Source: Escherichia coli (GTDB lineage: Bacteria > Pseudomonadota > Gammaproteobacteria > Enterobacterales > Enterobacteriaceae). From it: 64,000 nucleotides of DNA. The notes beneath the pieces are model-generated. The model did no database searches, was not told where the DNA came from, and saw only the letters and a list, made by a program, of their open reading frames with translations. Shown one piece after another: positions 18,894-22,204 of the stretch; the first letter of the stretch is position 1, and every line of letters starts with the position of its first letter. The DNA is taken from NCBI RefSeq assembly GCF_003334305.1, contig NZ_QOWS01000006.1; one strand, written 5' to 3'. The position numbers were made by a program, and so were the translations under genes.

Positions 18894-21710
18894 ATGAGTG
18901 ACTATAAATCAACCCTGAATTTGCCGGAAACAGGGTTCCCGATGCGTGGCGATCTCGCCAAGCGCGAACCGGGAATGCTGGCGCGTTGGACTGATGATGA
19001 TCTGTACGGCATCATCCGTGCGGCTAAAAAAGGCAAAAAAACCTTCATTCTGCATGATGGCCCTCCTTATGCGAATGGCAGCATTCATATTGGTCACTCG
19101 GTTAACAAGATTCTGAAAGACATTATCGTGAAGTCCAAAGGGCTTTCCGGTTATGACTCGCCGTATGTGCCTGGCTGGGACTGCCACGGTCTGCCGATCG
19201 AGCTGAAAGTAGAGCAAGAATACGGTAAGCCGGGTGAGAAATTCACCGCCGCCGAGTTCCGCGCCAAGTGCCGCGAATACGCGGCGACCCAGGTTGACGG
19301 TCAACGCAAAGACTTTATCCGTCTGGGCGTGCTGGGCGACTGGTCGCACCCGTACCTGACCATGGACTTCAAAACTGAAGCCAACATCATCCGCGCGCTG
19401 GGCAAAATCATCGGCAACGGTCACCTGCACAAAGGCGCGAAGCCAGTTCACTGGTGCGTTGACTGCCGTTCTGCGCTGGCGGAAGCGGAAGTTGAGTATT
19501 ACGACAAAACTTCTCCGTCCATCGACGTTGCTTTTCAGGCGGTCGATCAGGATGCACTGAAAGCAAAATTTGCCGTAAGCAACGTTAACGGCCCAATCTC
19601 GCTGGTGATCTGGACCACTACGCCGTGGACTCTGCCTGCGAACCGCGCAATCTCTATTGCACCTGATTTCGACTATGCGCTGGTGCAGATCGACGGTCAG
19701 GCCGTGATTCTGGCGAAAGATCTGGTTGAAAGCGTAATGCAGCGTATCGGCGTGACCGATTACACCATTCTCGGCACGGTAAAAGGTGCGGAGCTTGAGT
19801 TGCTGCGCTTTACCCATCCGTTTATGGGCTTCGACGTTCCGGCAATCCTCGGCGATCACGTTACCCTGGATGCCGGTACCGGTGCCGTTCACACCGCGCC
19901 TGGCCACGGCCCGGACGACTATGTGATCGGTCAGAAATACGGCCTGGAAACCGCTAACCCGGTTGGCCCGGACGGCACTTATCTGCCGGGCACTTATCCG
20001 ACGCTGGATGGCGTGAACGTCTTCAAAGCGAACGACATCGTCGTTGCGCTGCTGCAGGAAAAAGGCGCGCTGCTGCACGTTGAGAAAATGCAGCACAGCT
20101 ATCCGTGCTGCTGGCGTCACAAAACGCCGATCATCTTCCGCGCGACGCCGCAGTGGTTCGTCAGCATGGATCAGAAAGGTCTGCGTGCGCAGTCACTGAA
20201 AGAGATCAAAGGCGTGCAGTGGATCCCGGACTGGGGCCAGGCGCGTATCGAGTCGATGGTTGCTAACCGTCCTGACTGGTGTATCTCCCGTCAGCGCACC
20301 TGGGGCGTACCGATGTCACTGTTCGTGCACAAAGACACGGAAGAGCTGCATCCGCGTACTCTCGAACTAATGGAAGAAGTGGCAAAACGCGTTGAAGTTG
20401 ACGGCATCCAGGCGTGGTGGGATCTTGATGCGAAAGAGATCCTCGGCGATGAAGCTGATCAGTACGTGAAAGTGCCGGACACATTGGATGTATGGTTTGA
20501 CTCCGGATCTACCCACTCTTCTGTTGTTGACGTGCGTCCGGAATTTGCCGGTCACGCAGCGGACATGTATCTGGAAGGTTCTGACCAGCACCGTGGTTGG
20601 TTCATGTCTTCCCTGATGATCTCCACCGCGATGAAAGGCAAAGCGCCGTATCGTCAGGTACTGACCCACGGCTTTACCGTGGATGGTCAGGGTCGCAAGA
20701 TGTCTAAATCCATCGGCAACACCGTTTCGCCGCAGGATGTGATGAACAAACTGGGCGCGGATATTCTGCGTCTGTGGGTGGCATCAACTGACTACACCGG
20801 TGAAATGGCCGTTTCTGATGAGATCCTGAAACGTGCTGCCGACAGCTATCGTCGTATCCGTAACACCGCGCGCTTCCTGCTGGCAAACCTGAACGGTTTT
20901 GATCCGGCAAAAGATATGGTGAAACCGGAAGAGATGGTGGTACTGGATCGCTGGGCCGTAGGTTGTGCGAAAGCGGCACAGGAAGACATCCTCAAGGCGT
21001 ACGAAGCATACGATTTCCACGAAGTGGTACAGCGTCTGATGCGCTTCTGCTCCGTTGAGATGGGTTCCTTCTACCTCGACATCATCAAAGACCGTCAGTA
21101 CACCGCCAAAGCGGACAGTGTGGCGCGTCGTAGCTGCCAGACTGCGCTGTATCACATCGCAGAAGCGCTGGTGCGCTGGATGGCACCAATCCTCTCCTTC
21201 ACCGCTGATGAAGTGTGGGGCTACCTGCCGGGCGAACGTGAAAAATACGTCTTCACCGGTGAGTGGTACGAAGGCCTGTTTGGTCTGGCAGACAGTGAAG
21301 CGATGAACGATGCGTTCTGGGACGAGCTGTTGAAAGTGCGTGGCGAAGTGAACAAAGTCATTGAGCAAGCGCGTGCCGACAAGAAAGTGGGTGGCTCGCT
21401 GGAAGCGGCAGTAACCTTGTATGCAGAACCGGAACTGTCGGCGAAACTGACCGCGCTGGGCGATGAATTACGATTTGTCCTGTTGACCTCCGGCGCTACC
21501 GTTGCAGACTATAACGACGCACCTGCTGATGCTCAGCAGAGCGAAGTACTCAAAGGGCTGAAAGTCGCGTTGAGTAAAGCCGAAGGTGAGAAGTGCCCAC
21601 GCTGCTGGCACTACACCCAGGATGTCGGCAAGGTGGCGGAACACGCAGAAATCTGCGGCCGCTGTGTCAGCAACGTCGCCGGTGACGGTGAAAAACGTAA
21701 GTTTGCCTGA
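18894..21710 (+). CDS. ileS: Isoleucine--tRNA ligase
   Basis: 938-aa ORF with class I HIGH (SIHIGH) and KMSKS motifs and C-terminal Cys cluster. Confidence 0.98.
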
Positions 21711-22204
21711 TGAGTCAATCGATCTGTTCAACAGGGCTACGCTGGCTGTGGCTGGTGGTAGTCGTGCTGATTATCGATCTGGGCAGCAAATACCTGATCC
21801 TCCAGAACTTTGCTCTGGGGGATACGGTCCCGCTGTTCCCGTCGCTTAATCTGCATTATGCGCGTAACTATGGCGCGGCGTTTAGTTTCCTTGCCGATAG
21901 CGGCGGCTGGCAGCGTTGGTTCTTTGCCGGTATTGCGATTGGTATTAGCGTGATCCTGGCAGTGATGATGTATCGCTCGAAGGCCACGCAGAAGCTAAAC
22001 AATATCGCTTATGCGCTGATTATTGGCGGCGCGCTGGGCAACCTGTTCGACCGCCTGTGGCACGGCTTCGTTGTCGATATGATCGACTTCTACGTCGGCG
22101 ACTGGCACTTCGCCACCTTCAACCTTGCCGATACTGCCATTTGTGTCGGTGCGGCACTGATTGTGCTGGAAGGTTTTTTGCCTTCTAAAGCGAAAAAACA
22201 ATAA
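21710..22204 (+). CDS. lspA: Lipoprotein signal peptidase (signal peptidase II)
   Basis: 164-aa membrane ORF; start ATG overlaps the ileS stop (ATGA). Confidence 0.96.

Follow-up and report, generated by a model that had tools for sequence, protein, structure and literature searches.

[quoted passage not shown] Translation of neighbours is coupled only if the genes overlap or lie very close together, coupling being lost at a spacing of about 20 nt, and tight pairs are 4.5-fold enriched for subunits of one complex (PMC10666635). Four of five native E. coli pairs with an ATGA overlap were found to be coupled, and the Shine-Dalgarno sequence contributes to this coupling (PMC6728339). The bioB and bioF genes overlap yet are uncoupled (PMC6728339), so an overlap alone is no proof of coupling. 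For trpB-trpA in the E. coli trp operon, Das and Yanofsky (1989, as cited in PMC5230787) showed that coupling is efficient only if the stop and start codons lie close together.

The window analyzed here is a stretch of 64,000 nucleotides, identical over its full length (100%) to positions 713679..777678 of the E. coli strain A7 chromosome (NZ_CP028767.1). Because of this identity, and because the PGAP annotation maps one to one, the gene names can be taken as correct; all annotated intact genes of the window have proper start and stop codons. The original prediction named five overlapping pairs and suggested that they are translationally coupled. Its gene identities, its operon context and four of its five overlaps held when the junctions were read directly, while the geometry given for ileS/lspA did not. 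All five pairs are adjacent protein-coding genes on one strand, as confirmed by annotation and open reading frame checks, and they lie in four known E. coli operons: ribF-ileS-lspA-fkpB-ispH, fixABCX, kefFC and lptD-surA-pdxA-rsmA-apaG-apaH. The spacings are -1 nt (ileS/lspA), -4 nt (fixC/fixX), -8 nt (kefF/kefC), -4 nt (pdxA/rsmA) and -1 nt (surA/pdxA), all inside the range of about -8 to +10 nt for termination-reinitiation pairs, a range taken from PMC10666635. Termination-reinitiation coupling has been demonstrated in E. coli at just these spacings. The overlaps are real but ordinary, a common, well-documented and already known bacterial arrangement by which one ribosome can usually move on to the next gene. 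We infer, with a probability of roughly three in four, that they work by termination-reinitiation coupling and that they form two classes. No coupling test on any of the five pairs was found in the literature searched.

The ileS gene (18894..21710, plus strand) and the lspA gene (21710..22204, plus strand) overlap by one nucleotide, A21710. The ileS stop codon TGA (21708..21710) and the lspA start codon ATG (21710..21712) form the sequence TGATG at 21708..21712 on the plus strand. The two genes had been said to share ATGA at 21707..21712, but this is incorrect. The sequence at 21707..21713 is CTGATGA, and its ATGA (21710..21713) is made up of the lspA ATG and the base after it, which opens the second lspA codon; it is not the ileS stop codon. 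The TGATG is kept in seven of eight other Enterobacterales. No Shine-Dalgarno sequence was detected upstream of lspA (-0.9 kcal/mol). LspA database entries carry differing N-terminal calls, from 164 to 257 aa, and in Edwardsiella and Pectobacterium the gene caller placed an ATG or CTG start three bases upstream of the TGATG start.

Two other pairs on the plus strand carry strong binding sites. First, the fixX start and the fixC stop share ATGA at 41930..41933, a 4-nt overlap that direct reading bore out, and all 22 species have a spacing of -4. The fixX Shine-Dalgarno sequence AAAGGAG (41913..41919, plus strand; -8.2 kcal/mol) lies in Lys-Gly-Val codons of fixC, 10 nt before the ATG. For this Gly, 21 of 22 species use GGA, a codon whose background use in fixC is 9%. 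Secondly, the kefC start codon ATG (44237..44239) and the kefF stop codon TAG (44242..44244) lie within an 8-nt overlap at 44237..44244 (plus strand; ATGGATAG), again as predicted, with a spacing of -8 in all 70 species. The kefC Shine-Dalgarno sequence CAGGAGG (44224..44230, plus strand; -10.3 kcal/mol) lies in Gln-Glu-Ala codons of kefF, 6 nt before the ATG, and the Glu is encoded by GAG in all 67 species, with a background of 45%. Unusual synonymous codons hold both Shine-Dalgarno sequences in place. The local RNA at both starts is predicted to be open in 100-nt windows (z = +0.73 for fixX and z = +1.36 for kefC). Co-transcription of the fixABCX operon has been reported (PMC3680233), and kefF is located 5' of kefC in one operon with an overlap of a few bases (PMC10224563). 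In addition, homologues of FixC and FixX are chains C and D of one complex in PDB 7koe, and the KefC C-terminal domain is fused to KefF in PDB 3eyw, 3l9w and 3l9x.

On the minus strand, the genes from lptD to apaH are separated, in operon order, by 52, -1, -4, 2 and 6 nt, in agreement with the claim that gaps in this run are at most about 50 nt. The first of these is the 52-nt lptD-surA spacer (51171..51222, minus strand), which ranges from 45 to 256 nt among species. At the other end, apaG and its two tight junctions occupy 47691..48076 (minus strand): the 2-nt rsmA-apaG spacer is at 48075..48076, with AGGAG at 48083..48087 inside rsmA, and the 6-nt apaG-apaH spacer is at 47691..47696, where apaH lacks a Shine-Dalgarno sequence. 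The imp-surA-pdxA operon has been described, and lptD through apaH are co-induced (PMC2731931).

Within this run, the surA stop codon TAA (49886..49884) and the pdxA start codon ATG (49884..49882) form TAATG at 49882..49886 (minus strand), so that the 1-nt overlap at 49884 was correctly called. Among 79 species the spacing is -1 in 59, -8 in nine, 0 in three and +95 to +125 in eight. The overlap is dispensable in Klebsiella and Raoultella, and it is absent in two more distant relatives, where the spacing is +15 and +2 nt. In one distant relative pdxA is missing from this position. No Shine-Dalgarno sequence was detected for pdxA at the overlap (-1.9 kcal/mol), whereas lineages with a surA-pdxA spacer of 95-125 nt have an AAGGA site (-5.5 kcal/mol). 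This difference is a small natural experiment, which supports the view that the overlap takes the place of a binding site.

The next pair, pdxA/rsmA, shares ATGA at 48895..48898 (minus strand), confirming the 4-nt overlap. Of 80 species, 69 have a spacing of -4 and 11 a spacing of -8, and one of two more distant relatives has +7 nt. No Shine-Dalgarno sequence was detected for rsmA in this sequence (+0.6 kcal/mol) or in any of the 80 species. A 1989 paper names the pdxA/ksgA overlap in its title. Roa et al. are said to have described, in 1989, a promoter inside pdxA at which about half of the ksgA (rsmA) transcripts begin. With such an internal promoter, only some of the rsmA mRNA would be open to coupling; on the transcripts that begin inside pdxA, rsmA must be initiated without a ribosome that has read the full pdxA gene.

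The last 56 nt of pdxA, directly upstream of the rsmA ATG (48899..48954, minus strand), are near-invariant in Enterobacteriaceae at the nucleotide level, third codon positions included. This block has the lowest value of 1,365 15-codon windows in surA-apaH (0.14 versus a mean of 1.07 bits). It is neither conserved nor recognisable in two more distant relatives. A tentative reading, which we hold to be doubtful, is that the block is a dual-coding regulatory element for rsmA, with the ATGA overlap embedded in a control region rather than serving as a simple coupling device. On this reading the block would lie in the leader of a transcript from an internal promoter, and it may be the mRNA site at which the RsmA/KsgA methyltransferase represses its own translation. 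An extended -10 sequence, TGCTAAAAT at 49070..49062, is a candidate for that promoter. Autoregulation of RsmA/KsgA translation was reportedly described by van Gemen et al. in 1989.

A ribosome-binding site inside the upstream gene, which the original prediction proposed to look for at each junction, is thus present for fixX and kefC and absent for lspA, rsmA and pdxA, and this split follows the same pattern across species. Lack of a Shine-Dalgarno sequence is found in three of the five overlapping downstream genes versus four of 36 others (Fisher p = 0.03). Because none is detectable, another route of ribosome delivery is needed for lspA, pdxA and rsmA.

A rival explanation is coupling by RNA unfolding, in which translation of the upstream gene melts a structure over the downstream start so that new ribosomes can bind, as in atpHA. 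Coupling of this type is established elsewhere in E. coli (PMC5230787; PMC12548453), and of the five local folds that at ileS/lspA is the most stable (-33.9 kcal/mol, z = -1.55), with the lspA AUG within a stem. Even so, compared with shuffled sequence, none of the 100-nt windows at the five junctions is significantly more stable (z from -1.55 to +1.36), and a hairpin predicted ahead of rsmA is weak (z = -1.08) and vanishes in a slightly longer context. Unfolding would still require a recruitment site, and lspA, pdxA and rsmA lack a Shine-Dalgarno sequence. We consider this explanation improbable. RNA structure as the main coupling device was rejected, with no significant z-score at the five junctions or at the pdxA block. 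A search of the whole window at Rfam gathering thresholds gave four matches, none near a junction.

The overlaps also depend on correct start codons. If some were annotation artefacts, the true downstream start would lie further downstream. The varying LspA calls and the upstream starts in Edwardsiella and Pectobacterium could be read this way, and the pdxA start was reportedly assigned only tentatively by Roa et al. in 1989. Against this, in four of five cases no possible start of the reading frame precedes the annotated ATG, and the nearest alternative in-frame starts would cut conserved N-terminal residues. The offset of orthologue starts is 0 in 70 of 70 kefC, 22 of 22 fixX and 80 of 80 rsmA sequences, and for pdxA it is 0 or +3 in 78 of 79, always on or beside the surA stop codon. 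Mis-annotated starts were therefore rejected on the first-possible ATGs and the orthologue start alignment, and this explanation is very improbable.

Transcription signals were considered as well. One mRNA for both genes of each pair is supported, since an overlap leaves no room for a terminator and the literature describes these operons. Promoter and terminator consensus scans gave chance-level counts and nothing convincing at the junctions, extended -10 promoters being invisible to the scan. The original prediction took independent promoters and terminators between the genes as evidence against it. This criterion is weak, and internal promoters do not exclude coupling on longer transcripts; 36% of E. 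coli operons are complex, and internal promoters are common (PMC4161252).

The main alternative is that the overlaps are neutral by-products of genome compaction, with fresh ribosomes loading at each downstream gene and co-transcription without meaningful coupling. The rate of tight pairs agrees with this: nine of 41 same-strand adjacent pairs in the window have spacings of -8 to +6 nt versus 707 of 2,987 (24%) genome-wide in E. coli (PMC10666635; binomial p = 1.0), and none of the 41 overlap beyond the five discussed. An excess of overlaps in the window was rejected, the rate being that of the genome. The ATG start already provides three of the four bases of ATGA, so that such overlaps arise easily. 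In some lineages the overlap is lost and both genes are kept, and the bioBF genes overlap without being coupled. Furthermore, with their strong, open ribosome-binding sites kefC and fixX could be translated independently.

Other observations speak for coupling or against neutral compaction. First, lspA, rsmA and, in overlapping lineages, pdxA have no detectable Shine-Dalgarno sequence in the sampled species, and a binding site is present exactly where the surA/pdxA overlap is broken. Secondly, the pdxA start remains on the surA stop codon while PdxA residues 2-5 vary freely among species. Third, the overlaps are conserved in 70 of 70 species for kefF/kefC, 22 of 22 for fixC/fixX, 80 of 80 for pdxA/rsmA (-4 or -8) and 68 of 79 for surA/pdxA, counts that represent non-independent events in related species, while the spacers between non-overlapping genes of these loci differ in length. 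Part of this conservation is forced, since an indel in an overlap would harm two reading frames. Lastly, coupling was found in most of the E. coli overlapping pairs tested, as noted above. Since the downstream starts match conserved orthologue N-termini and the overlap geometry is conserved across species, the overlaps are real features beyond chance, though their rate is not. The comparative data fit selection on the overlap arrangement, and we regard purely neutral compaction as unlikely.

Under termination-reinitiation, a ribosome ending the upstream gene would already be on, or a few bases from, the downstream start codon, and the same ribosome would begin translating the next gene while still bound to the mRNA. 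How much downstream protein is made would thereby depend on how much upstream protein is made. In the first class (fixC/fixX and kefF/kefC), with a strong Shine-Dalgarno sequence inside the upstream gene, open RNA and products of one complex, reinitiation would be aided by the binding site, some independent initiation may also occur, and a plausible benefit is matched amounts of subunits. In the second class (ileS/lspA, surA/pdxA and pdxA/rsmA), with no Shine-Dalgarno sequence and unrelated functions, the overlap itself probably supplies the ribosome. A minor protein could in this way be expressed at a low level, in proportion to a presumably more abundant one encoded before it. To our knowledge, no complex is known for IleS/LspA, SurA/PdxA or PdxA/RsmA.

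The overlaps have little significance beyond good annotation. This analysis adds the corrected ileS/lspA geometry and the split of the pairs by a conserved internal ribosome-binding site, and lspA, pdxA and rsmA would be suitable native E. coli genes on which to test reinitiation in the absence of a Shine-Dalgarno sequence.

Compared with known systems, the 1-nt TGATG of ileS/lspA is the same as that of trpB-trpA, and the TAATG of surA/pdxA is its equivalent. However, trpB and trpA encode two subunits of one enzyme and have been tested by mutation, whereas ileS/lspA and surA/pdxA encode unrelated proteins and lack a Shine-Dalgarno sequence. The coupled pairs hyfHI, astDB, ydbH/ynbE and menDH (PMC6728339) have a 4-nt ATGA overlap like fixC/fixX and pdxA/rsmA. 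They carry a binding site inside the upstream gene, where the Shine-Dalgarno sequence raises the efficiency of reinitiation, and they were measured with dual reporters and transcript controls (PMC6728339). Removal of the Shine-Dalgarno sequence cut reinitiation by 60-100% in these four pairs (PMC6728339), and rsmA has none at all. In this respect pdxA/rsmA resembles bioB-bioF, an ATGA overlap with a very weak downstream Shine-Dalgarno sequence, where translation of the bioF reporter occurs fully by de novo initiation (PMC6728339). The atpH-atpA genes are also neighbours on a single mRNA, where translation of the second depends on that of the first (PMC5230787), but their coupling relies on a defined structure that covers and inhibits the downstream ribosome-binding site, whereas no significant structure was found at the five junctions here. 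Lastly, kefF/kefC is matched by kefG-kefB, a paralogous pair of ancillary subunit and antiporter outside the window, in which the ancillary gene is likewise 5' in the same operon, typically with an overlap of a few bases (PMC10224563).

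The overlaps are real as features. The five junctions were established from a reading of the sequence, a list of open reading frames and a coordinate check, and the original prediction was exact for four of them: fixC and fixX have ATGA in common (41930..41933), kefF and kefC overlap by 8 nt (ATGGATAG, 44237..44244), pdxA and rsmA (ksgA) have ATGA in common on the minus strand (48895..48898), and surA and pdxA overlap by base 49884 within TAATG. The packing described for lptD-surA-pdxA-rsmA-apaG-apaH is also exact, with spacings of 52, -1, -4, 2 and 6 nt (negative values are overlaps). 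The headline pair, ileS/lspA, was given the wrong geometry. These genes do not share ATGA; they overlap by 1 nt in TGATG (21708..21712), and 21710 is both the end of ileS and the start of lspA. The ATGA at 21710..21713 consists of the lspA ATG and the first base of codon 2; ileS terminates at the TGA just before. No other overlaps were present among the 41 same-strand adjacent pairs of the window, of which nine had spacings of -8 to +6 nt. Genome-wide, 707 of 2,987 E. coli pairs (24%) fall in that range (PMC10666635), so the frequency in the window is not above chance (binomial p = 1.0 for tight pairs), and overlaps of -4, -1 and -8 are favoured in bacteria generally (PMC12548453). The finding is real and was partly mis-described; such overlaps are usual for the E. 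coli genome and had been documented before.

The gene names originally assigned are correct. The full 64-kb window is identical, compared base by base, to 713679..777678 of the E. coli strain A7 chromosome (NZ_CP028767.1), so the RefSeq annotation of that stretch transfers directly. This chromosome was the top megablast match to window 20000-44999 (entire query, 100% identity), a region present in 5,426 of 5,426 complete E. coli genomes. Every annotated intact gene of the window has correct start and stop codons and lacks internal stops. In addition, window 1..37 is the 3' end of an IS621-family transposase gene, and the nhaR-rpsT interval (12856..16834) contains two fimbrial pseudogenes and espX1 in this strain, in place of which K-12 has insertion sequences. 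Rfam identified, above gathering score, tpke11 between dnaK and dnaJ (8636..8713), the sok antitoxin RNA adjoining mokC (10098..10250), the ES003 sRNA upstream of carA (26017..26069) and naRNA4 between djlA and rluA (54661..54740).

Species-representative genomes were scanned with PdxA and 10-kb flanks, which gave 80 Enterobacteriaceae loci spanning kefFC and, where present, fixCX; orthologues were placed by tblastn, and stops and starts were derived from them. The spacing was -8 in all 70 kefF/kefC pairs and -4 in all 22 fixC/fixX pairs. For pdxA/rsmA it was -4 in 69 of 80 and -8 in 11, the latter form arising from a single-base difference that shifts the pdxA stop to TAA. The surA/pdxA spacing (n = 79) was -1 in 59, -8 in nine, 0 in three and +95 to +125 in eight. 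Non-overlapping spacers vary in length at those loci (lptD-surA 45-256 nt, fixB-fixC 22-74 nt, apaG-apaH 2-10 nt). PdxA residues 2-5 diverge widely across species and the pdxA ATG remains on the surA stop, which indicates constraint on position, not on peptide. Among three more distant RsmA relatives (54-64% identity), L091 has spacings of -4 for pdxA/rsmA and +15 for surA-pdxA, L092 has +7 and +2, and L093 has no pdxA at the corresponding position; tight packing is kept there, and overlap is not universal. Neutral overlap, with the downstream genes initiated independently, would suit a frequency that is not above chance and the open spacings of distant relatives, and is judged unlikely beside the constraint on the position of the pdxA start.

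The ileS/lspA junction was followed in eight LspA homologues (71-91% identity) with their contigs. TGATG was found in seven, and Serratia fonticola has a 13-nt ileS-lspA spacer. Mis-annotation of the downstream starts has very little probability: a gene finder did place the lspA start 3 nt upstream in two of the seven TGATG contigs (ATGATG, CTGATG), and the overlapping ATG is the earliest possible start of the downstream frame in four of the five pairs, with start positions that agree with orthologue alignments. Many E. coli-like LspA database entries (P0001-P0012 and others) are N-terminally longer, 195-257 aa vs the 164-aa protein, and an additional Pfam domain (PF11076 or PF26397) occurs in some; mis-called starts, or fusion of calls on short contigs, probably account for these entries. 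Related loci have lspA-fkpB spacings between -1 and about 116 nt. The fkpB/ispH junction (22741..22743) has a 1-nt gap in E. coli and Enterobacter, and a 20-nt overlap between the gene calls in Edwardsiella, Pectobacterium, Serratia, Xenorhabdus, Pantoea, Tatumella and Kosakonia (loci L084-L090).

Binding-site strength was calculated as the duplex energy of the 21 nt upstream of each start with the 16S rRNA 3' end (ACCUCCUUA). The ribosome-binding site looked for inside the upstream gene is predicted for fixX (AAAGGAG, 41913..41919, -8.2 kcal/mol) and kefC (CAGGAGG, 44224..44230, -10.3 kcal/mol), whereas no Shine-Dalgarno sequence lies in the 21 nt upstream of lspA, rsmA or pdxA (-0.9, +0.6 and -1.9 kcal/mol). 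The same split was found in every species sampled. Synonymous codon choice holds both strong sites: at the kefC site, the Glu residue of KefF is encoded by GAG in 67 of 67 species vs 45% elsewhere in kefF and kefC; at the fixX site, the Gly residue of FixC is encoded by GGA, a rare codon, in 21 of 22 species vs 9% in the rest of fixC, and adjoining synonymous sites vary freely. Downstream genes without a Shine-Dalgarno sequence are three of the five overlapping ones vs four of the 36 others in the window (Fisher p = 0.03; small numbers).

Three further junctions were noted. No Shine-Dalgarno sequence precedes the apaH start (47690, minus; spacer 47691..47696; -0.9 kcal/mol, with a median of +1.7 across 78 species), which lies 2-10 nt past the apaG stop in all species examined, making it a further coupling candidate although non-overlapping. 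At caiC/caiD (32628..32738, minus), an in-frame ATG at 32735 would give a 297-aa CaiD that begins without a gap after the caiC stop (TAAATG); the annotated start is the ATG at 32627 (261 aa), with a good GGAG site. Lastly, the yaaY stop is 7 nt before ribF (17684..17909), which lacks a Shine-Dalgarno sequence; a published note places a ribF transcription start inside yaaY (PMC2896540), and for this reason yaaY is possibly not a genuine gene.

The surA-pdxA junction provides a natural experiment. Eight loci (L042, L045, L049, L051, L052, L058, L068, L074) carry an insert, which might be a repetitive extragenic element or similar. In seven, from Klebsiella, Raoultella and related bacteria, 95-125 nt with two hairpin-forming segments separate the surA stop from pdxA, and AAGGA lies 9 nt before the second ATG, which opens a conserved 11-residue protein sequence (-5.5 kcal/mol). 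In the eighth, L045, the insert is 111 nt long and the only ATG is preceded by a similar site (-5.7 kcal/mol). Lineages with the overlap have -1.9 kcal/mol at pdxA and no AAGGA site. On the simplest reading of these sequences, the overlap may substitute for a ribosome-binding site, which would be needed once the overlap is broken.

Coupling through RNA unfolding is improbable. Against shuffled controls, no junction of the five had a significantly more stable fold (z from -1.55 to +1.36). Most structure was predicted at ileS/lspA, and around the fixX and kefC starts the RNA is more open than expected at random. Promoter and terminator consensus scans gave counts at chance level with nothing convincing at the junctions, where Rfam found no family.

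Synonymous variation was measured as mean third-position entropy in 1,365 15-codon windows of a surA-through-apaH alignment (77 distinct sequences). The lowest value of all was at pdxA codons 311-325 (48954..48910, minus; 0.14 bits vs a mean of 1.07, sd 0.25). The last ~56 nt of pdxA (about 48899..48954, minus) are nearly invariant in 77-79 Enterobacteriaceae sequences, third codon positions included, the run from 48954 to ~48905 ending just before the rsmA ATG. This block could be a leader, operator or initiation region for rsmA; a hairpin predicted over it is not significant, and no counterpart is recognisable in two relatives whose RsmA identity is 61-64%. Within a second conserved window (49095..49051) lies TGCTAAAAT (49070..49062, minus), an extended -10-like sequence that precedes the rsmA ATG by ~160 nt and could be the internal ksgA promoter that Roa reportedly described in 1989. 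Autoregulation of ksgA has been reported, and the conserved windows may represent that promoter and a leader or operator for autoregulation. Another low window, rsmA codons 128-142 (48473..48517, minus; 0.37 bits), may reflect an apaG-apaH promoter inside rsmA or else a constrained motif. The promoter near the end of pdxA is said to start about half of ksgA transcripts, so rsmA would also be translatable without a ribosome from pdxA. Internal promoters are common in E. coli, where 36% of operons are complex (PMC4161252), and their presence would thus not refute coupling.

The literature supports co-transcription for all four operons: ribF-ileS-lspA-fkpB-ispH (PMC10783499), for which Kamio 1985 and Miller 1987 are cited; imp (lptD)-surA-pdxA, with sigma-E co-inducing lptD through apaH (PMC2731931); kefF, located 5' of kefC with a few-base overlap (PMC10224563); and fixABCX (PMC3680233). 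Roa, Connolly and Winkler 1989 name the pdxA/ksgA overlap in their title. We give a probability of about 75% to co-transcription of the pairs with coupling by termination-reinitiation. Both genes would lie on one mRNA, and a ribosome terminating at the upstream stop would reinitiate at the overlapping start. Junction geometry, conservation, binding sites and complex partnerships are demonstrated; a dependence of downstream on upstream translation is what we infer. The binding site would help coupling for the complex partners of fixCX and kefFC; coupling of lspA, pdxA and rsmA would be site-independent and probably inefficient.

To our knowledge, no complex is formed by IleS and LspA, SurA and PdxA, or PdxA and RsmA. 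The pairs with a strong binding site differ in this respect: structures show KefF bound to the C-terminal domain of KefC (PDB 3eyw, 3l9w, 3l9x), and homologues of FixC and FixX are chains C and D of a single entry (7koe), in agreement with the published 4.5-fold enrichment of tight pairs for complex subunits (PMC10666635). The literature searched held no direct coupling test of the five pairs, none of which is among the published coupled or uncoupled test pairs. Four of five native E. coli ATGA pairs were coupled, with the binding site contributing in those four, and bioBF was uncoupled (PMC6728339); a spacing of ~20 nt nearly abolished coupling (PMC10666635).
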